This document shows, piece after piece, positions 9,148 through 51,637 of a DNA stretch of 64,000 nt; positions within the stretch are counted from its first letter, which is position 1; each line of letters starts with the position of its first letter. The DNA is from Minisyncoccia bacterium (GTDB taxonomy: Bacteria; Patescibacteriota; Minisyncoccia; Phycocordibacterales; GWA1-40-21), in assembly GCA_049287185.1 (NCBI GenBank), contig JBAQFI010000004.1, positions 8,125 through 72,124 on the forward strand, in the 5' to 3' direction. The notes beneath the pieces were generated by a model, which was not told the DNA's origin, ran no database searches, and saw only the letters and a list, made by a program, of their open reading frames with translations. The position numbers and the translations under genes are program-made.

Positions 9148-9534
9148 TTACCGATATGGGTTTCCTCTCATCTCGTCAGTGACCTCAATGAGCTGTTGGG
9201 GAACGACACCACTGACAATCTCAGCTTCGTTTTCGGCGAAACAAAAATATTGTCCGGCCATTGGGAAATCATGCTCTTTCCACCATTTGGCGGCTTTGGG
9301 TTTCTCCTGACCCAAAATTTGTAGTGCCTGTTTTTGAGGAACACTGAAGCCATAGCGATTGACGCTGGCTTTTTTCTTACTCAGGACACCGCGTTCGCCG
9401 CCACTATCAGGGAAACCTAGATAGTGACAACAGGGAAGGAGAAGTCCTTTCCAAGCTTGGCGAATCTTAAGCGGTGCTTCACCAATAGGAACTTTTATAA
9501 TTCTAATCACTCCGGTTGCTCTGTCTCTTTTCAT
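9148..9534 (-). CDS. conserved hypothetical protein (128 aa)
   Basis: Longest ORF in this interval with good codon periodicity. No motif I can assign. The overlapping + and - ORFs in the track are shorter. Confidence 0.4.
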   Translation of the reverse strand: MKRDRATGVIRIIKVPIGEAPLKIRQAWKGLLLPCCHYLGFPDSGGERGVLSKKKASVNRYGFSVPQKQALQILGQEKPKAAKWWKEHDFPMAGQYFCFAENEAEIVSGVVPQQLIEVTDEMRGNPYR

Positions 9535-18647: not shown

Positions 18648-18710
18648 TTTAATATGGTTTATGTTATAATATTACGGTAAATTTAGTTTTTTTGCTAAAT
18701 ATTTGTCGCT

Positions 18711-19826
18711 ATGAATAATTTTCTTTCAAAAACATTTGATTCATTTTTTAAAAAAGAAGTTGGCAGTGTCATTGGTTTGGACATTGGCAGTTCTTCTGTG
18801 AAAATTGTTCAACTAAAGAAAAAGAAGGGTAGAGCCGTTCTTGAAACTTATGGAGAAATTGCTATTGGTCCCTATGCCAACCAAGAAATTGGGCGAGCTA
18901 CAAATTTATCCCTAGATAAACTTTCTGAAGCCATATTAGATTTAATCAAAGAGGCCAATGTTACCTCAAATGTTTGTTGTACTTCTATACCGATAACTTC
19001 AAGTTTAATTTCTTTTATAAAAGTTCCAGATCTTGGAGAAAAAAAACTGGCTGAAATTATTCCCCTTGAAGCTCGTAAATACATTCCTGTGCCAACATCT
19101 GAAGTGACAATCGACTATTGGGTAATTCCAACTGAAGAAAGTGCTTTTTCTGAGTTTCAATCTAGTGCCAAAATTTTAGATGAAAAAATTAAGAATGTTT
19201 TGCTGGTGGTTGTTCACAATGATGCCAAATCTAAAAATGATCAGTTGATGAAAATGTCCGGTCTAGTTGCCGCCTCTTCAGAGATTGAATTATTTAGCAC
19301 CATTAGGGCAGTTACTGAACCAGGTTTGGAAACCCAAATGATATTAGATTTTGGTGCCAGAACAACCAAAATATATATTATCGATAGAGGAATCCTCCGA
19401 GCCTCAAATATTGTAAATCGTGGAGGACAAGACATCACCCTCGCTATTTCTCGTTCCCTCGGTTTAAGTTTTGATGAAGCAGAAAGAATTAAGAAATCCA
19501 CTCCCGGCGGAAGTGTTATCAGAGATGTCAGCGATCTTTCCTCAGTAAATTTAGACTTTATTTTTTCAGAGGTTAAGAGAGTCATTGTTAATTATCAAAA
19601 AAATTATAATAAAAACATTAGCAAAGTCTTTTTGACTGGTGGAGGAGCAAATCTCAAGGGTTTAAATGAATCGGTTAAAGTTGCTCTAGATTTACCGGTA
19701 GAGAAGGGAAATCCCTTTGGTAAACTAGAATACCCCGCCTTTTTGGAAAACGTTTTAAAGTCAGTTGGACCAGAATTCACTGTAGCTATTGGTCTCGCGC
19801 TACGTCAATTACTAGACAATGATTAG
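18711..19826 (+). CDS. pilM: type IV pilus assembly protein PilM (actin-like ATPase)
   Basis: N-terminal GLDIGSSSVKIVQL phosphate-1 motif and actin/FtsA-like fold signature. First gene of the pilM-N-O cluster. Confidence 0.85.
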   Translation: MNNFLSKTFDSFFKKEVGSVIGLDIGSSSVKIVQLKKKKGRAVLETYGEIAIGPYANQEIGRATNLSLDKLSEAILDLIKEANVTSNVCCTSIPITSSLISFIKVPDLGEKKLAEIIPLEARKYIPVPTSEVTIDYWVIPTEESAFSEFQSSAKILDEKIKNVLLVVVHNDAKSKNDQLMKMSGLVAASSEIELFSTIRAVTEPGLETQMILDFGARTTKIYIIDRGILRASNIVNRGGQDITLAISRSLGLSFDEAERIKKSTPGGSVIRDVSDLSSVNLDFIFSEVKRVIVNYQKNYNKNISKVFLTGGGANLKGLNESVKVALDLPVEKGNPFGKLEYPAFLENVLKSVGPEFTVAIGLALRQLLDND

Positions 19827-41517: not shown

Positions 41518-43170
41518 ATGAAGAAGAAACATAAATATATATTTGTGGTTGGAGGAGTGATGTCAGGAGTAGGTAAGGGTATTGCCGCTTCTTCTTTGGG
41601 AAGGATTTTGCAGTCCAAAGGTTACAAGGTTAATCCAATTAAAATTGATCCTTATTTAAATGTTGATGCCGGTACTATGAATCCGGTTGAACATGGAGAG
41701 GTTTTTGTCCTTGATGCCGGAACGGAGTGTGATCAAGATATGGGTAACTATGAGCGTTTTATGGAAGTCACTCTAACCCCAGAAGACTATATGACCAGCG
41801 GTATGGTTTATAAACATGTAATTGATAAAGAAAGGGCATTAGGCTATGGTGGCAAGTGTGTAGAGGCCATTCCACACATTACCGGTGAAATAGTTCGAAG
41901 AATAAAAGATTCGGCCGAGAAAAGCGGATCCGACATAACTCTGGTAGAAATTGGTGGCACCATTGGCGATTATCAAAATGTGCTTTTTATTGAAGCAGCG
42001 CGAGCGATGAAACTTCATAGTCCAGAAAATATTCTGTTTGTGATGGTAAGTTATTTACCAGTGCCAGGAACGCTTGGTGAAATGAAAACCCGTCCAACTC
42101 AAAATGCTGTGCGTCAGTTAAATTCTTATGGTGTTCAGCCAGATATCATCATTGCCCGTGGTACAGTAGCTCTCGATGAAAGGCGTAAAGAAAAAATTGC
42201 TTCTGCCTGTGCCATCAAACCAAATCATGTTATTTCGGCCCCGGACATTGAATCTGTTTATGATGTACCGATTAATTTTGAGAGGGATAATATTGGAAAT
42301 ATTGTTCTCAAAGCCTTACACCTACGACCGAAAAATTTGGAAGCAGATCTCAAAGATTGGAAAAAGTTTGTCGAAAAAACCAAAAATTATCGAGGGGACA
42401 TCAACATTGCCGTGGTTGGTAAATATTTTGACTCTGGAGATTTTGTTTTTTCTGATGCTTATGTTTCTGTTATTGAAGCGATGAAATATTCTTGTTATTG
42501 GCTCGACCGCAAGGCAAAATTAACCTGGATTAATTCTAAATTAATTGAAACTGGAGAAGTAAAACTGACCGACCTAGATAAATTTGATGGAGTACTCGTT
42601 CCGGGAGGTTTCGGTTCATCGGGTATTGAAGGTGTAATATCCAGTATTAAATATGCTCGTGAAAATAATATTCCATATTTTGGCTTGTGTTACGGTATGC
42701 AACTTATGGTAATTGAATATGCCAGAAATGTTTTAGGTTGGAAAGACGCCAATACAGCAGAAATAAATCCAAAATCAAAACACTTAGTAATTGATGTTAT
42801 GCCGGATCAAAAAAAGAAAATTGCCGATGGTAATTACGGTGGTAGTATGAGACTCGGCGCCTATCCAGCCAAAATCAAGTCTGGAACCCTGGCTAGGGAA
42901 GCCTACAAGGAGGAAATCGTTTCTGAACGTCATCGTCACCGCTACGAAGTGAATCCAGAGTACATTAAAGATATAGTAAAAGCTGGTTTGGTTTTCTCTG
43001 GTACTTCACCTGATGAGCTTTTGATGGAAATTGCCGAATTACCAAAGAATAAACACCCGTTCTTTTTAGGCACTCAATTTCATCCAGAATTTAAAGCAAA
43101 GCCATTGAACCCCCATCCACTTTTTACGGCTTTTGCTAAAGCCGCCAAGAAGCGCTCGGAAGAAAAATAG
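41518..43170 (+). CDS. pyrG: CTP synthase
   Basis: N-terminal KYIFVVGGVMSGVGKGIAASSLG, C-terminal glutamine amidotransferase with GLCYGMQ catalytic Cys and HPEF. Confidence 0.95.
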   Translation: MKKKHKYIFVVGGVMSGVGKGIAASSLGRILQSKGYKVNPIKIDPYLNVDAGTMNPVEHGEVFVLDAGTECDQDMGNYERFMEVTLTPEDYMTSGMVYKHVIDKERALGYGGKCVEAIPHITGEIVRRIKDSAEKSGSDITLVEIGGTIGDYQNVLFIEAARAMKLHSPENILFVMVSYLPVPGTLGEMKTRPTQNAVRQLNSYGVQPDIIIARGTVALDERRKEKIASACAIKPNHVISAPDIESVYDVPINFERDNIGNIVLKALHLRPKNLEADLKDWKKFVEKTKNYRGDINIAVVGKYFDSGDFVFSDAYVSVIEAMKYSCYWLDRKAKLTWINSKLIETGEVKLTDLDKFDGVLVPGGFGSSGIEGVISSIKYARENNIPYFGLCYGMQLMVIEYARNVLGWKDANTAEINPKSKHLVIDVMPDQKKKIADGNYGGSMRLGAYPAKIKSGTLAREAYKEEIVSERHRHRYEVNPEYIKDIVKAGLVFSGTSPDELLMEIAELPKNKHPFFLGTQFHPEFKAKPLNPHPLFTAFAKAAKKRSEEK

Positions 43171-43602: not shown

Positions 43603-44121
43603 CTAGAGTTTACGGCTATCATAGGCCCAATGAAGGACTGCTTGGCGTTGTTTTCTGTGGCAGAAGAAGTCACCCACGCGACAATTTTTTGAGATTTGAG
43701 CAGTATGTCTGGTCATGGCTAGCCAACGTTTTATCTGCCGTTCATCTTCCTTTGGTAGCCGTCTGCCCATGTAATAGCGACAATACCATTGAAACCAGCC
43801 TCGAGGATCTTCTTTGTAAATCCAGCCTTTCTTGCGCCAGACTGACAATGGCTGACTAGCATTAACTTTGAATAGATTAATTTTAGGATCGTGAATATAA
43901 CTATCCTTCTTTTGGAATTTAGCTTTAGTAAACCAATTTTTAGGAAACTCTTCAGTACAATCACGCAGATAGACTCCACCAAAAACACCCAAGGCCAGCA
44001 TTTCTTTAGGCGTAAGTTCTGGTTTAAACCTTGGGTCAAAATTGTTACCAATGGGAGCAGAAAGAACATATTTATAGTTCCTTTGCATTTTGTCGTTTAC
44101 GGTAATAATTTTGCTTCTCAT
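43603..44121 (-). CDS. conserved hypothetical protein (172 aa), Trp/Tyr/Arg-rich core
   Basis: Distinctive segment DPRGWFQWYCRYYMGRRLPKEDERQIKRWL. No family assigned from memory. Confidence 0.4.
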   Translation of the reverse strand: MRSKIITVNDKMQRNYKYVLSAPIGNNFDPRFKPELTPKEMLALGVFGGVYLRDCTEEFPKNWFTKAKFQKKDSYIHDPKINLFKVNASQPLSVWRKKGWIYKEDPRGWFQWYCRYYMGRRLPKEDERQIKRWLAMTRHTAQISKNCRVGDFFCHRKQRQAVLHWAYDSRKL

Positions 44122-45199: not shown

Positions 45200-45901
45200 T
45201 TATATAAGAGGATTTTGTTTTGGTAGACCGGGTAAGCGGGGAAATTCGTCCGGAGTTTCCCTAATTTTTTCAATAATGATGAGTTGACGGTCAGTTAGAC
45301 CTGCTACGTCTATTTTAATAATCTCTTTAATTTTTCCACCCAAGATTTCAATAGCTCTTTTAGAATCTTCCACTTCACTATCACTAACAGCTTTTTGAGC
45401 AATAAAAATTCCACCAACTCTGACCAAGGGGAGTGTATATTCACAGAGGACAGGTAAATAAGCAACGGCACGGGCGAGTGCGACGTCAAATTTTTCTCGG
45501 TAACGATCGCTCTGGCCGATTTCTTCCGCCCGGTTGTTTATAGCAATAGTCCCTTTTAAGCCGAGTTTTTGAATTACATTATTTATAAAATTTACTTTCT
45601 TGCCAGTCGAGTCGGTCAAAGTCATATTTAACTCCGGTTGAGCAATCTTGATAGGCAGACCTGGAAAACCAGCCCCTGAACCAATATCAATCACTTTTTT
45701 AGCGTCTTTTGGTAGGTAGGGAATAATAGTCAAAGAATCGACAAAATGTTTCTTTAAAACCTCATCTTTTTCTTTAATTGCTGTAAGATTAAATTTTTCA
45801 TTCCATTCAGTTAACTCATTGAAAAAAATATCAAAAGATTCTAATTGTCCTTTTGATAGTCTGATACCCATTTTTTCGGCTTCAACACGTAATTCTTCCA
45901 T
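45200..45901 (-). CDS. rsmG: 16S rRNA (guanine527-N7)-methyltransferase RsmG (GidB)
   Basis: SAM-binding IDIGSGAGFPGLPIKI, FDVALARAVA, overall GidB length and layout. Confidence 0.85.
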   Translation of the reverse strand: MEELRVEAEKMGIRLSKGQLESFDIFFNELTEWNEKFNLTAIKEKDEVLKKHFVDSLTIIPYLPKDAKKVIDIGSGAGFPGLPIKIAQPELNMTLTDSTGKKVNFINNVIQKLGLKGTIAINNRAEEIGQSDRYREKFDVALARAVAYLPVLCEYTLPLVRVGGIFIAQKAVSDSEVEDSKRAIEILGGKIKEIIKIDVAGLTDRQLIIIEKIRETPDEFPRLPGLPKQNPLI

Positions 45902-46244
45902 GAAGACTATCTTAGCATAAATCCTGAAATTTTGAAGCTAAGCTTGCTATTTACAGAGTCTATCCAAGATTTAACCAGAATTAAAAAAGAATTTTATATA
46001 AAAACACCTTGTCTGATAAAACATTAAAATTTTGGCTGCAAATCTGCAAATTATTCGTCAAGAGAGGAATCTATCCTTCCTCAAAATTTTTTCGTTTTAT
46101 CTAGACATTAAATCTTGGACAGACTCTTAATTTTCTGTTAGATTTAAAAAAGAAAATGAACATTAAAAACTAAATTGAAAGGAAAGGAGATCAAACCAGC
46201 ATTTTGTCTTAGATTCTAAACAAAACTAAAGCAGGAGACTTAAA

Positions 46245-47621
46245 ATGAGTAATTATATCCAACCGACAGTTAAGTTATTAGATTGTACACAAATCGACCC
46301 GGCAGTTCTCGCATCACTAGCTGGTAAAACAGCCTACAACGCTGAATTACCGGCTCTTGACGGGAAAATGCTTGATGTAGAAGGGAAGTTGTTTGGCACT
46401 GGCCATCATACCACCCTAGAACACGCATCGTTTGTTTTTGCCATTGATGGTCTATCAGTTTCGGCTGTAACTTTCGGGCTTCATCTGAATCATCCGTTTT
46501 ATAATACGGATCAGAGAAGTGGTCGTTATTGTGCCAAAATGTTTCTCGAACCAAATTTTGAGAACATTGAGGGTTACCTCCGATATTTCTGGCCGGAGCT
46601 TTCCGAAGAAAATGTGAAGCTTGCGATGGATTACGTCAAACAGTCAGTAGCTGTGTATCATAAAAATATTTCGGCGGCTGAAGAATTGGCCCAGAAATAT
46701 TTTGCTGTTGAGAGGCCATTTGCCTCAAAAACGGTAAAGGATAATGCTAAAAAAATTGCCCAGGAGCAGTTGCGGATGTTTATTCCGACGATTTTTCCCA
46801 CTGGGTTACAGTACACTTGTGACTTAATCACAATTGTCAGTATGTGGCTCGTGGCCTGGTCGCCGGAAATGCGTTTTGTCACGGACAAGATGAAGGATCT
46901 GGTTTTGGGAAAATATCCCAGCCTGGGATTCATATTCAATGAATCTGAGCGCTTGAAAGTTGATTGGCATCCAAAGATTCCTCTGTTCGTGGTAGGAGTC
47001 AAACATAAGCCAGAATGTTCAATTCTGGAAAAATGTGATGCCATGAGTGTCGACATTGATCCAGCTCATTTGGGTCCGACCGATCTTTTACCTTTTGCGC
47101 CACAGTATATGAATAATAACGTTGCACTTTTGAAAACGTCAGTTCATATTTCTGTGGCGACTATGGGGCAAGATCAACGCCATCGAACGATTCATCGTTG
47201 CAGTCCGGAATTTTCTGGTTCCTTCTATCTGCCACCTCTATTAGACGAGATGGGACTGGAAGAAGAAATGATGAAAATGTCTTCACAATGGATTGACGTG
47301 TTGCGAAAAGTCTTACCGAAGACTTTGCTTACCGCCTTGGCCCCCTATGGAGCGATGGTACGGTATCGTAAGTCCACTAATCTCAATGCCTTTGCGCACG
47401 AGCAGGCTAAGAGACTGTGCTGGTGTGCGCAAGAAGAAATATACCATCTCAATAGGATATTATATTTTATTGCTGATACCAAAGCACCAGGAATCAGAGA
47501 ACTTATGATGCCACCGTGTTCTAAAGGTAAATGTGCTGAAGCGAAGGGTGGTCGTTATTGCGGACGTTGTCTAAGTAAGGTCCGCAAGTCTGGCGAGTTC
47601 CTTCTCGAAAGAAAAGTATAA
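46245..47621 (+). CDS. tandem ThyX-like protein (two flavin-dependent thymidylate synthase-like halves + C-terminal Cys4 zinc ribbon)
   Basis: N-half GHHTTLEHASFVFAIDG...LNHPFYNTDQRSGRY aligns to ThyX GHETPFEHIVFTFHVKA...FRHRIASYNELSGRY, but RHR is replaced by NHP. C-half has QRHRTIHRCSPEFSGSFY (RHR...SG), RKVLPKTLLT, NLNAF and AQEEIYHLNRIL (the ThyX LP..T / N.R / AQ.EI pattern). It ends in CSKGKCAEAKGGRYCGRC. Confidence 0.55.
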   Translation: MSNYIQPTVKLLDCTQIDPAVLASLAGKTAYNAELPALDGKMLDVEGKLFGTGHHTTLEHASFVFAIDGLSVSAVTFGLHLNHPFYNTDQRSGRYCAKMFLEPNFENIEGYLRYFWPELSEENVKLAMDYVKQSVAVYHKNISAAEELAQKYFAVERPFASKTVKDNAKKIAQEQLRMFIPTIFPTGLQYTCDLITIVSMWLVAWSPEMRFVTDKMKDLVLGKYPSLGFIFNESERLKVDWHPKIPLFVVGVKHKPECSILEKCDAMSVDIDPAHLGPTDLLPFAPQYMNNNVALLKTSVHISVATMGQDQRHRTIHRCSPEFSGSFYLPPLLDEMGLEEEMMKMSSQWIDVLRKVLPKTLLTALAPYGAMVRYRKSTNLNAFAHEQAKRLCWCAQEEIYHLNRILYFIADTKAPGIRELMMPPCSKGKCAEAKGGRYCGRCLSKVRKSGEFLLERKV

Positions 47622-47645
47622 ACCAAGGTTAATTAACCTTAAACA

Positions 47646-47670
47646 AAGCAGCTTGAAAGGGCTGCTTTTA
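47646..47670 (+). terminator. terminator after the ThyX-like gene
   Basis: aaagcagc-ttgaaagg-gctgctttta, preceded by palindrome aaggttaattaacctt. Confidence 0.6.
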
Positions 47671-47691: not shown

Positions 47692-49227
47692 ATGTCTCTA
47701 TCTATGGATTTTTTGTTAAATTTTTTATCTGGTATTCAGGCGATAGGGCACTGGGGTTATCTCGTGGCTTTTCTTTTTGCCTTCTTGGAATCATTGGCGA
47801 TGGTAGGTGGTTTTATTCCTGGTTCAACGGCAGTAGTTTTTTTGGGCTTTATGTGTTTCCAGGGTTATTTGAATATTTACATATTGCTACTTGTTGTCGT
47901 CATCGGGGCAATCTCTGGGGATAACATAAGCTATTGGCTCGGTACTAAAGGCAAGGGATACTTTAAAGAGGAGAACAAAATTCTTAAGACTCAGCATTTG
48001 CAAGTCAGTGAAAAATTCTTTGCTAAGCATGGAAATAAAAGTATTATTCTAGGACGTTTTATTGGAGTGATTAGGCCAATGGTTCCTTTTACGGCTGGAC
48101 TTTCCAGGATGAAATATAAAATATTTTTGTTTTGGACTGTAGTCGGGGGTATTATTTGGGCCACGTTCCATATTTGTTTAGGTTACTTCTTTGGTGGTGC
48201 TCTAGAATTAATTAGATTTTGGACTCACCGAATTGGTCTCGTGGCCTTTATTTTAATTGTGGCTGTGGCTATTGGTTGGTATCTGCTTAAAAAGGCCAAG
48301 CCAACCGCCATGGCGGTGGTTAAAGTTCTGTCACTTGAAGAAAAATATCTAGACAATACTTCCTTTGTTAGATTGTGTTTTGATTATTTTTCTATCTCGA
48401 ATATAAAAAATAATTTTTATGGTTGGCCATTAGTCGTTCTTGGTTTTGTTGTTTCCGGAGCAGTCATTTTGTTTACATTGTTAGCCGATAATTTCTTAGA
48501 CTCTAACACCCTAAACTATTTTGATGATTTAGTTTCTGGTTTCTTTTATTTTATAAGAGACCCATTATTTGTTGATATTTTTGTTTGGATTTCCTTGTTA
48601 TGTAAGGCCGAGGTTATTATTATTCTAGCAGCTTTTATTGCCTTGGGTTTTTATATATATGATAAAAAATACATAATTCTGCCTTTCTTGCTAAGTGTTG
48701 GAGGTAGTGCTGGTCTCGGTTTATTTATAAAAACATTGATTGATCGCCCAAGACCACTGTTTTTTCCTCCAGTTTATTTTGAGCCAAGCTGGTCTTTTCC
48801 AAGTGGTCACTCCATACTCGCAGTTACTCTTTATGGTTTCTTAATCTATTATTTTTTGCGTTTCTGGTCACAAACCAAGAGTTATCTTTATAATCTTTCG
48901 TTAACTTTATCGGGTCTAATTGTCATCGTTGCTATAGGTTTTAGTCGCCTTTATCTCGGTGTTCACTACTTTTCTGACGTTGTCGGTGGTTATATTATTG
49001 GTTTCTTGATACTAGCCACAGTAATTGTAATCAATGAATGGTGTATATATCGAGGTTTGGATAGAAAAATTAATGACTATTTATTAGATCACACGATTTG
49101 TTCGAATGGTGTGAGAAAAAATACTATATTTATCTTGATTGGTATTTTTATTGTTTTCTTTATAATTTTTGGTCTGTATTTTTATCATCCTATCTATTTA
49201 GTAGATCCAGGTTTGGTTTTGTTTTAA
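47692..49227 (+). CDS. DedA-family (SNARE-associated) domain fused to PAP2 phosphatase (undecaprenyl-diphosphatase-like)
   Basis: N-terminal DedA-type TMs (GYLVAFLFAFLESLAMVGGFIPGS). C-terminal PAP2 motifs KTLIDRPRP, SFPSGHS, SRLYLGVHYFSDVVGG. Confidence 0.7.
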   Translation: MSLSMDFLLNFLSGIQAIGHWGYLVAFLFAFLESLAMVGGFIPGSTAVVFLGFMCFQGYLNIYILLLVVVIGAISGDNISYWLGTKGKGYFKEENKILKTQHLQVSEKFFAKHGNKSIILGRFIGVIRPMVPFTAGLSRMKYKIFLFWTVVGGIIWATFHICLGYFFGGALELIRFWTHRIGLVAFILIVAVAIGWYLLKKAKPTAMAVVKVLSLEEKYLDNTSFVRLCFDYFSISNIKNNFYGWPLVVLGFVVSGAVILFTLLADNFLDSNTLNYFDDLVSGFFYFIRDPLFVDIFVWISLLCKAEVIIILAAFIALGFYIYDKKYIILPFLLSVGGSAGLGLFIKTLIDRPRPLFFPPVYFEPSWSFPSGHSILAVTLYGFLIYYFLRFWSQTKSYLYNLSLTLSGLIVIVAIGFSRLYLGVHYFSDVVGGYIIGFLILATVIVINEWCIYRGLDRKINDYLLDHTICSNGVRKNTIFILIGIFIVFFIIFGLYFYHPIYLVDPGLVLF

Positions 49228-50114: not shown

Positions 50115-50642
50115 ATGGAAAATACAAAAATAGATAAAACAAAATTTGAGGAGATTATTAAGAAAATTGAGGACTTGAAAAAAACTGGGGAAGTGGATAT
50201 TACTTCAGAGGAAGATTTGAGTTTAGCCGTTATGAATCTGATTGGAGTAGAAGAACATTTATATTTTACGGCTGAGAAAACCAAAAAACCTGTTTACTTT
50301 GAAATGCTTCATGAAGCTCGTGAGGAACGTAAAAAGTTAATGAAGAAGTTGTTGCCAAAAAATGAGGGAGAAAGCTGGTGTTTGTCCAAGCATCTCCTAT
50401 CTACCACAATGCGTATGATGGAAGTGGGAACTAAGCTTTTTACTGATGGTAAAAAAGATGAAGCAAAGGAGATGTTTGACGGCGCTTACAAAATCTATTC
50501 TATGTTTTGGGCCCTACGATTTGGAATTATGAAAGCTCATGAAATACAAGCCTGTGCTATTCCAGGAACAGAGACAGATGAAAATAAACCAATGACTATG
50601 GAAGACATTGTTAGTAAATTAGTCGATTGTTGTAAAGAATAA
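50115..50642 (+). CDS. hypothetical protein (175 aa)
   Basis: Helical, Cys pair near the C-terminus (DCCKE). No family. Confidence 0.35.
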   Translation: MENTKIDKTKFEEIIKKIEDLKKTGEVDITSEEDLSLAVMNLIGVEEHLYFTAEKTKKPVYFEMLHEAREERKKLMKKLLPKNEGESWCLSKHLLSTTMRMMEVGTKLFTDGKKDEAKEMFDGAYKIYSMFWALRFGIMKAHEIQACAIPGTETDENKPMTMEDIVSKLVDCCKE

Positions 50643-50653
50643 AACCAACATAT

Positions 50654-51043
50654 ATGGAAAACAGTAAAACTCAGAAAATGGTGATGACTATTGTTGGAAT
50701 TTTAGTGACAGTTTTTGTCTTTGGAGGAATCTATTGGACGATTAGTCATCAAGCTAAAACAACTACAGGAGAAGAGCTGAAGCCATTTGCCCAGTGTTTG
50801 TCTGACAAAGATTTTACTATGTATGGTGCCGAATGGTGTTCACATTGCAAGGATCAAAAAATATCTTTCGGATCAGCTTTTAGTTTAATTAATTATGTCG
50901 AGTGTCCTGATAATGAAGCACTCTGTACAGCTAATGGTGTGGTTGGTTTTCCAACTTGGCTAAGTAGCACCACGGGCGTTAAACTAGAAGGTTTCCAAAG
51001 TTTAACCAAACTCGCAGAGGTTAGTGGTTGCGTTCTACCATAA
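50654..51043 (+). CDS. membrane-anchored thioredoxin-fold protein (CxxC)
   Basis: N-terminal TM then FTMYGAEWCSHCKDQK (WCxxC). Sits adjacent to ccdA. Confidence 0.65.
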   Translation: MENSKTQKMVMTIVGILVTVFVFGGIYWTISHQAKTTTGEELKPFAQCLSDKDFTMYGAEWCSHCKDQKISFGSAFSLINYVECPDNEALCTANGVVGFPTWLSSTTGVKLEGFQSLTKLAEVSGCVLP

Positions 51044-51052
51044 GAAACTGAT

Positions 51053-51637
51053 ATGAAAAAAATAATTTTAATTATACTGACAGTTATTGTTTTAATTGGG
51101 ATGTTTTGTTCAATTTTTATATTTGATTTATTCAGAGATAGAAAAGTTTCTGTTGATTTCGAAGATTGTTTAAAGTCGGGTTTCCCAGTGATGGAATCTT
51201 ATCCTCGACAGTGTCGAGATGACGCCGGGCGAACTTTTATAGAAGAGATAGGTAATATTTTAATTAAGACAAATTTAATTAATCTAAGTAATCCCAATCC
51301 AAATAGTGAGAATATTTCACCACTTAAAATTACTGGCCAAGCTCGGGGTCTTTGGTTTTTTGAGGCCAGTTTTCCCATTAAAATCCAGGATTTAGAAGGC
51401 AAGACGATTGTATCAGGAGTGGCTACCGCCAAGGATGATTGGATGACAGATGATTTTGTTAATTTTGAGGCTGAATTAAAATTTAAGGTTTCTACTACTA
51501 CCAAGGCAGTTTTAATTCTTGAAAAGGATAACCCTTCCGGGTTAGAGGAGAATTCTGACTCATTATATTTGCCAATAGTTTTAATGCCAGAGCCAACAGT
51601 TGATAAAACATCAAAATTGGAGGTTGAGGATAATTAA
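51053..51637 (+). CDS. hypothetical secreted protein
   Basis: N-terminal signal anchor, beta-rich. Confidence 0.35.
   Translation: MKKIILIILTVIVLIGMFCSIFIFDLFRDRKVSVDFEDCLKSGFPVMESYPRQCRDDAGRTFIEEIGNILIKTNLINLSNPNPNSENISPLKITGQARGLWFFEASFPIKIQDLEGKTIVSGVATAKDDWMTDDFVNFEAELKFKVSTTTKAVLILEKDNPSGLEENSDSLYLPIVLMPEPTVDKTSKLEVEDN

Follow-up and report, generated by a model that had tools for sequence, protein, structure and literature searches.

A probable flavin-dependent thymidylate synthase built from two diverged ThyX domains that divide the catalytic residues between them

We analysed a 64,000-nt stretch of the genome of a Minisyncoccia bacterium (contig JBAQFI010000004.1; hereafter the window). 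Positions 46245 to 47621 of its plus strand hold an open reading frame (ORF) that starts with ATG and encodes a protein of 458 amino acids (aa); an initial annotation of the same sequence had given exactly these coordinates and this length. The protein is identical to the NCBI entry 'FAD-dependent thymidylate synthase [Minisyncoccia bacterium]' (Patescibacteria, also called the candidate phyla radiation (CPR); FAD, flavin adenine dinucleotide). We consider it likely that this is a flavin-dependent thymidylate synthase (ThyX, or FDTS) in which a single chain of two diverged ThyX domains forms a complementary homodimer and probably holds a metal at four cysteines. By itself the gene is that of an ordinary, already annotated housekeeping enzyme; the interest lies in how its two halves are made:

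46245 to 47621, plus strand: whole gene of the two-domain (tandem) ThyX, 458 aa; from the ORF listing, with a Pfam Thy1 match of 68.6 bits in two stretches
46296 to 46856, plus strand: N-half Thy1 domain, residues 18-204, matching Thy1 profile positions 8-165 of 191; Pfam on the isolated half, 46.6 bits
46941 to 47126, plus strand: segment between the domains, with a vestige of the second domain's N-terminal part, residues 233-294; from the start of the Pfam match and the secondary structure of the models
47139 to 47489, plus strand: truncated C-half Thy1 domain, residues 299-415, matching Thy1 profile positions 62-190 of 191; Pfam on the isolated half, 25.7 bits

The initial annotation had proposed two fused ThyX-like domains, and our results bear this out: each half matches Pfam Thy1 (PF02511) when searched in isolation, and AlphaFold2 (AF2) models, one of the entire chain and one of the C-half, match ThyX structures. 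The gathering score of Thy1 is 24.8 bits, which the whole protein exceeds; the C-half is barely above it. With the whole-chain model (predicted local distance difference test score (pLDDT) 90.6, predicted template modelling score (pTM) 0.90), Foldseek returned exclusively ThyX and PolB chains, each of at most 246 residues. A model of the C-half by itself (pLDDT 81) matched ThyX structures with an E-value of ~3e-7 and a probability of 1.0, and PolB was among the fold matches. At the level of sequence profiles, an hhalign alignment of the N-half to Thermotoga maritima (Tm) ThyX extended over 203 columns (E 7.6e-7), and phmmer against PDB sequences gave a weak match to the N-half core alone (E ~0.3). 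The second domain is truncated, being without the N-terminal helices that bear the GH.T..EH motif (the His53/Thr55 motif of the T. maritima enzyme). These helices are missing from the segment at residues 233-294, and the same region is ~60 residues longer in the longer relatives described below.

The initial annotation also regarded such an architecture as unusual, a view that we could not uphold: there are thousands of annotated two-domain ThyX proteins, and the duplication of the ThyX domain was noted, and called uncharacterised, in 2009 (PMC3224940). Our literature search on tandem, fused or duplicated ThyX and on the ThyX of Patescibacteria found only that remark. Searching PDB with the class profile gave no matching chain of more than 258 residues; a two-domain ThyX has thus yet to be solved. 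To this known but uncharacterised architecture the window protein adds a compact, divergent member, with two Thy1 domains of which the second is N-terminally truncated, and with the invariant division of residues and the four invariant cysteines that we describe below. At least 784 homologues of 440-480 aa have ~50% identity, and a species-representative genome scan found 116 loci with a compact two-domain ThyX, most of them of Parcubacteria type (Moranbacteria, Paceibacteria, Portnoybacteria, Wolfebacteria, Nealsonbacteria, Campbellbacteria and Magasanikbacteria). When 1.84 billion representatives were searched with a profile, 1011 matches at E<=1e-3 were obtained, falling into tiers, the lowest of which consists of proteins of 490-560 aa with ~25% identity. 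A query from this lowest tier led to at least 4594 proteins of ~515-535 aa, hereafter the long class, which come from Chloroflexi (e.g. Ardenticatena maritima), Kryptonia, Armatimonadetes and Bacteroidota, with one member also from Woesearchaeota. All of them carry the annotation FAD-dependent thymidylate synthase or ThyX, and Pfam gives them two Thy1 stretches.

Two further observations concern the distribution of the family. Some occurrences of the compact form (L022, L025, L031, L033, L041, L046, L048, L071, L076, L077 and others; 42-45% identity) are in metagenome-assembled genomes (MAGs) from gut or rumen that are labelled Rickettsiales, Alphaproteobacteria or Ca. Enterousia, which suggests either that the gene has passed between Patescibacteria and reduced Alphaproteobacteria or that the bins are mislabelled. 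In addition, a metagenomic two-domain ThyX of 840 aa (P0269) contains an intein in its N-half (Pfam Intein_splicing, residues 116-408), the intein-free members of its cluster being 531 aa long. Inteins sometimes sit in highly conserved enzymes, and we count this one as support for a functional thymidylate synthase.

To describe the conservation of individual residues we used an alignment of 344 full-length two-domain proteins, drawn from five similarity tiers that span 25-100% identity; equivalences to T. maritima ThyX (TM0449, the sequence of which was verified against PDB) are from phmmer and hhalign alignments. The segments of the window protein that matter for catalysis are as follows (dUMP, deoxyuridine monophosphate):

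46401 to 46424, plus strand: GHHTTLEH, residues 53-60, in which His54 corresponds to Tm His53, and Thr56 to Tm Thr55 and Mycobacterium tuberculosis (Mtb) Ser71
46488 to 46496, plus strand: N-half position of the RHR motif, Asn82-His83-Pro84, with both arginines lost; phmmer alignment to TM0449
46518 to 46532, plus strand: Ser92-Gly93-Arg94-Tyr95-Cys96, corresponding to Tm Ser88-Gly89-Arg90-Tyr91 (dUMP phosphate, catalytic loop); phmmer and hhalign alignments
46752 to 46775, plus strand: helix with Lys170, Glu174 and Arg177, corresponding to Tm Glu144 and Arg147; hhalign alignment
47169 to 47186, plus strand: Gln309-Asp-Gln311-Arg312-His313-Arg314, corresponding to Tm Gln75 and Arg78-His79-Arg80 (flavin and dUMP binding)
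47412 to 47441, plus strand: Arg390-Leu-Cys392-Trp-Cys394-Ala-Gln396-Glu-Glu398-Ile, corresponding to Tm Arg174-Ala-Asp-Ser-His178-Ala-Gln-Trp-Glu-Ile; alignment to Tm

As judged from these alignments, the retention of catalytic residues is strictly complementary between the halves, and the split is invariant in the 344 members. The N-half has His54 and Thr56, both invariant or near-invariant, in a segment that forms the flavin and folate side of the site (PMC6514825, PMC11940539). It also has Gln90 (Tm Glu86; invariant or near-invariant), Ser92 and Arg94 (344/344 each) within the SGRY motif at residues 92-95, the family form of which is Ser92-Gly/Gln93-Arg94-Tyr/Phe95, and Arg177 (344/344), with Glu174 nearly as constant. 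What the N-half has lost is the RHR motif, there being no arginine at either RHR position in either plausible alignment (NHP at residues 82-84 or GLH at 78-80), and the Arg174 loop, which is deleted; across the family, residue 82 is Ala, Thr or Val and residue 84 is Pro. The C-half supplies precisely these elements. Essentially all of the 344 proteins keep Gln309, Gln311 and Arg312-His313-Arg314 unchanged; in the window protein, nine residues separate RHR (312-314) from a following SG. Arg390, the equivalent of the uracil-activating arginine (Tm Arg174; the long class aligns to Mtb Arg199), is found in 344/344, and Gln396 and Glu398 (Tm Gln180 and Glu182), part of AQEEI at residues 395-399, are invariant or near-invariant. 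The C-half is without the His53/Thr55 segment and without Arg90/Tyr91 (the family has T-G-N-F here and the window protein S-G-S-F; hhalign suggests that the loop is shortened); in place of Arg147 it carries Met or Thr. The contiguous motif RHRxxSxxxxSxR is thus in neither domain (NHP...SGR in one, RHR...SGS in the other) and is complete only across the two halves. Indeed, the equivalents of Tm His53, Gln75, Arg78, Ser88, Arg90, Tyr91, Arg147 and Arg174 are all present and invariant or near-invariant, divided between the halves.

The motifs listed in the initial annotation (GHxTxxEH, NHP in place of RHR, SGRY, RHR-x9-SG and AQ.EI) are present as it read them, and the complementary retention that it noticed extends to the whole alignment. 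Its description of one half as degenerate does not fit, since each half is degenerate only for the residues that the other supplies, and invariant residues are found in both; neither would be dispensable. The N-half's loss of both RHR arginines and of the Arg174 loop, together with the presence of the signature RHR motif in the C-half, might be taken to mean that one half is dead, with a regulatory or scaffolding role, and that the other catalyses alone, for example as an active C-half oligomer regulated by the N-halves. However, the C-half is without the His53/Thr55 segment, Arg90, Tyr91, Glu144 and Arg147, which are needed in the handling of flavin, folate and dUMP, and the residues absent from the C-half are invariant in the N-half across the 344 proteins; purely regulatory selection would not retain exactly the catalytic residues that the other half has lost. 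We therefore regard a dead half as most improbable.

The division of residues is best read against the three-subunit active site of canonical ThyX, for which roles have been assigned from Mtb and Helicobacter pylori structures (reviewed in PMC6514825, section 3.1). In the Mtb site, subunit A contributes RHR (95-97) and Arg199 (Tm Arg174), subunit B contributes Ser71 and Arg190, and subunit C contributes the Gln103 backbone, Arg87, Ser105, Arg107 and Tyr108, the last three corresponding to Tm Ser88, Arg90 and Tyr91 (PMC6514825). The split in the enzyme of PBCV-1 (Paramecium bursaria chlorella virus 1), with Gln75 and Arg182 from monomer A and Ser88, Gln89 and Arg90 from monomer B (PMC3498832), agrees with this assignment. 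Given a site of three subunits and the residues that each half retains, the C-half would play role A only (Gln309, Arg312-His313-Arg314, Arg390), and the N-half would play roles B and C only (His54, Thr56, Ser92, Arg94, Tyr95, Glu174, Arg177). We propose that two chains pair to give a homodimer that is a pseudo-tetramer (N1, C1, N2, C2) mimicking the canonical tetramer. Such an assembly would have two complete sites, each made of one C-half and both N-halves, and two dead sites, each made of one N-half and both C-halves. In a D2 tetramer every subunit takes role A at one site, role B at a second and role C at a third; with these roles written as (a,b,c), (b,a,d), (c,d,a) and (d,c,b), placing the C-halves at a and d would yield two complete and two empty sites. 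Active-site asymmetry in a fused pseudo-dimer, raised as a possibility in the initial annotation, would on this account be the best reading of the split residues.

A second feature of the protein is a group of conserved cysteines, most of them in a short tail that follows the second domain:

47511 to 47570, plus strand: C-terminal cysteine tail, Pro423-Pro-Cys425-x4-Cys430-x8-Cys439-Gly-Arg-Cys442; from sequence and conservation

This tail had been described as a terminal Cys4 ribbon. The CxxxxC...CxxC pattern is present in the protein, but its last cysteine is not conserved: Cys442 is Cys in 3/120 close homologues and Asp or Asn in 115/120 (Asp in 103/120), and is variable in the long class. 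Cys425, Cys430 and Cys439 are invariant (344/344), and Glu432, Gly435 and Gly440 are nearly so; with three conserved cysteines in the tail, the pattern is not that of a zinc ribbon with two CxxC knuckles. The fourth invariant cysteine, and the candidate for the fourth ligand, is instead Cys392 (343/344), which lies 33 residues upstream of the tail within the C-half ThyX core, two residues past Arg390, in the loop that corresponds to Tm Arg174-Ala-Asp176. Neither the tail nor an equivalent of Cys392 is found in single-domain ThyX, and the set of four cysteines (Cys4) is therefore a hallmark of the two-domain class. From this pattern of conservation, Cys392, Cys425, Cys430 and Cys439 most likely bind a metal, structural zinc being the default expectation, and the metal would pin the C-terminal tail to the loop that bears Arg390. 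It is also conceivable, but in our view unlikely, that the four cysteines hold a redox-active iron-sulfur (Fe-S) cluster near the flavin rather than a structural zinc, and that the 'dead' sites are reused for donor docking or regulation. If so, the cluster would be a built-in point of electron entry, from ferredoxin or flavodoxin instead of or besides NAD(P)H, and both this cofactor and its reductive half-reaction would be new for flavin-dependent thymidylate synthases. Our literature search found no paper linking ThyX to zinc or to Fe-S. Separately, the compact subfamily in Patescibacteria has two extra near-invariant cysteines, Cys96 (Tyr95-Cys96, 46527-46532) and Cys394 (47424-47426), which flank the predicted live site; Cys96 adjoins the Ser-Gly-Arg-Tyr loop and Cys394 corresponds to Tm His178, and the long class has Val and Asn at these positions.

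Our best reading of the function is that the gene encodes a genuine ThyX, predicted to bind FAD and to synthesise deoxythymidine monophosphate (dTMP) from dUMP, methylenetetrahydrofolate (CH2-THF) and NAD(P)H. We read it this way because of the gene context of its relatives, the invariance of the dUMP-binding residues, and the reported occurrence of the duplicated form as the sole thymidylate synthase in most Chloroflexi. In one related locus (L001), the order is dCMP deaminase, thymidylate kinase (tmk), the ThyX gene, dUTPase (dut), serine hydroxymethyltransferase (SHMT; glyA) and FolD; in another (L003), it is SHMT (glyA), dCMP deaminase, a kinase, Tmk, the ThyX gene and dUTPase (dut); and in a third (L002), dCTP deaminase adjoins the ThyX gene. 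At least one neighbour from the dTMP or folate pathway lies within 6-10 kb in 25/53 related loci (loci of at least 9 kb). Chloroflexi, Dehalococcoides excepted, are reported to possess the duplicated ThyX alone (PMC3224940). Within the 64-kb window, tblastn with E. coli ThyA and T. maritima ThyX (the sequence of the latter verified against PDB), together with hmmsearch of the half-profiles over six-frame ORFs, found no ThyA and no second ThyX.

Several observations weigh against a ThyX of this kind. The two halves show no detectable internal similarity when their profiles are compared by hhalign, and the case for a duplication comes entirely from Pfam and the predicted fold. Searching PDB sequences with the C-half profile gave no ThyX match and only chance matches to IFIT1. 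These two negative results led us to structure prediction. The protein scores 45.4 bits on the NCBIfam thyX equivalog TIGR02170, below the cut-off of 87.9; members of the long class score 84-105 bits. Neither half has an arginine at the position of Mtb Arg190 (Tm Arg165; role B, flavin phosphate), and Mtb Arg87, which has its counterpart in the 'GISR' of the long class, is replaced in the compact subfamily by Val72, so contacts with cofactor and substrate must differ in detail. Tyr95 is Phe in 39/120 close homologues, and its counterpart, Tm Tyr91, has been reported as critical in T. maritima (PMC11940539, PMC8316439). The window gene has no dTMP-pathway gene next to it, and tblastn with the tmk, dut, dCMP deaminase, glyA, folD and dcd products of the related loci found none of them in the 64-kb window. 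In the proposed assembly, the intramolecular pseudo-dimer, the homodimer and the proximity of the four cysteines to one another are predictions, and the assignment of Tm Arg147 to a subunit is provisional.

Some of these points would be expected if the protein were a ThyX-fold paralogue with another chemistry or substrate, such as a UMP/dUMP C5-methylase resembling PolB (UMP, uridine monophosphate), a hydroxymethylase or another pyrimidine modifier. The low TIGR02170 score, the strong divergence from solved ThyX proteins seen with phmmer, the additional Cys4 site, the replacement of some flavin- or phosphate-binding arginines and the frequent Phe in place of Tyr95 are all compatible with such a paralogue, as is the presence of PolB among the fold matches. 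Nonetheless, homologues repeatedly adjoin tmk, dut, dCMP or dCTP deaminase, glyA and folD, and all known dUMP contacts (the equivalents of Gln75, Arg78, Ser88, Arg90, Arg147 and Arg174) are invariant. Moreover, the duplicated form is reported as the sole thymidylate synthase in most Chloroflexi (PMC3224940), and the window has no other ThyA or ThyX. We consider a change of chemistry quite unlikely, and favour dTMP synthesis.

The initial annotation noted that the gene is visibly richer in G+C (GC) than its neighbours, which is correct: its GC content is 0.436, compared with a mean of 0.365 for the ORFs of the window (z = 2.2), and its GC at third codon positions (GC3) is 0.416 as against 0.299 (z = 2.2), the second highest among 56 ORFs. 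The inference of horizontal acquisition that was drawn from this does not follow, since in 90% of 74 related loci the gene exceeds its flanks in GC, the mean difference being 4.0 points. The excess therefore reflects the composition of a conserved protein and not recent transfer. Apart from the two z-scores, the position of the gene outside the dTMP cluster known from other genomes and the relatives in MAGs labelled Alphaproteobacteria would be in keeping with a recent arrival in this Minisyncoccia genome. Set against these, the GC excess is a property of the family, homologues of ~50% identity are widespread across many Patescibacteria lineages, and mobile-element genes are not adjacent to the ThyX gene. 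We judge recent acquisition to be very unlikely, and rejected it on the family-wide excess of GC over the flanks.

The immediate surroundings of the gene contain the following elements:

45902 to 46244, no strand assigned: divergent, AT-rich intergenic region of 343 bp, common to the ThyX gene and rsmG; from the GidB Pfam match of the upstream ORF
46233 to 46237, plus strand: Shine-Dalgarno-like AGGAG, 7 nt 5' of the ATG; read directly from the sequence
47645 to 47668, plus strand: terminator-like hairpin followed by a T-rich tail, 3' of the stop codon; consensus scan only

The 340-bp leader of the initial annotation exists as a region, which measures 343 bp, but it is the divergent intergenic and promoter region shared with rsmG (the upstream ORF at 45200-45901, minus strand, identified by its GidB Pfam match), and no Rfam element was found in it. 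Rfam at the gathering score over the whole window gave no riboswitch or leader element, and at E<=1 over the 343-bp region gave nothing except a chance match to HIV_GSL3; promoter-like matches in the region are weak only. The neighbours of the ThyX gene in the window are pyrG (41518-43170), a tRNA gene, a thioredoxin gene, the divergent rsmG, a VTT/DedA-PAP2 fusion and a gene for a DsbD-like protein. The fusion, directly downstream (47692-49227, plus strand), is a membrane protein of 511 aa with VTT/DedA at residues 42-165 and a PAP2 phosphatase at residues 330-449. Between pyrG and the tRNA gene, an ORF of 172 aa (43603-44121, minus strand) has no Pfam match and is relatively GC-rich (0.405). 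The highest GC of the window (0.465) belongs to an ORF of 128 aa at 9148-9534 (minus strand), which also has no Pfam match and is on the strand opposite to most of its neighbours. Two more ORFs without a Pfam match (50115-50642 and 50654-51043, plus strand) are followed by a protein with a Gmad2 (immunoglobulin-like) domain (51053-51637, plus strand); L001 also has a Gmad2 protein (18665-19129), ~7 kb from its ThyX gene.

ThyX is of interest as a target for antibiotics and as a textbook example of an active site to which three subunits contribute. The two-domain class, with thousands of sequences from Patescibacteria, Chloroflexi and other phyla, probably including Chlamydia, amounts to a natural experiment on such a site, in which each copy, after duplication and fusion, lost exactly the residues kept by the other; with complementary loss of this kind, half as many active sites and a fixed order of assembly are to be expected. 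The exact complementary split, the predicted pseudo-tetramer with two live and two dead sites and the invariant Cys4 site appear to be undescribed in the literature that we searched. For Patescibacteria, whose metabolism is very reduced, our reading would mean that de novo dTMP synthesis is retained, by an enzyme distinct from the canonical one.

Among known systems, the chlamydial ThyX (CT632 of C. trachomatis) is relevant, being ~530 aa long, roughly twice the canonical length, and biochemically characterised; it probably belongs to the two-domain class. If it does, enzymatic activity for the class has already been published. Chlamydial ThyX sequences were omitted from early phylogenies because their identity was too low (PMC6171736), as would fit a member of the class. 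PolB, the UMP/dUMP C5-methylase of Streptomyces cacaoi (PDB 4P5A and 4P5B), has a ThyX fold like the window protein; unlike two-domain ThyX, it is a single-domain protein of a natural-product pathway, unlinked to tmk, dut and glyA.

The long class shares with the window protein the order of domains, the invariant division of residues, the four invariant cysteines and the annotation. The window protein differs from it (~515-535 aa) in belonging to the compact subfamily of ~450-470 aa, with ~25% identity between the two. In the compact subfamily both the inter-domain region and the cysteine tail (C-x4-C rather than C-x10-11-C) are shorter, SGRY takes the place of SQRY, and Cys96 and Cys394 are extra near-invariant residues; it has lost the arginines of 'GISR' and 'TLxR', and has gained invariant basic residues of its own (R91, R157, R318, K376, K389 and R441). 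In comparison with canonical homotetrameric ThyX (TM0449, Mtb Rv2754c, and the H. pylori and PBCV-1 (A674R) enzymes), the window protein has two domains per chain, the second without the N-terminal helices, with RHR in the C-half only and SxR in the N-half only. It has an added Cys4 site and tail, is predicted to have two of its four sites dead, and scores below the TIGR02170 cut-off. Nonetheless, the fold of both halves is that of canonical ThyX, the catalytic set is the same once the halves are combined, the neighbours come from the same pathway, and the same flavin-mediated methylene transfer to dUMP is to be expected.

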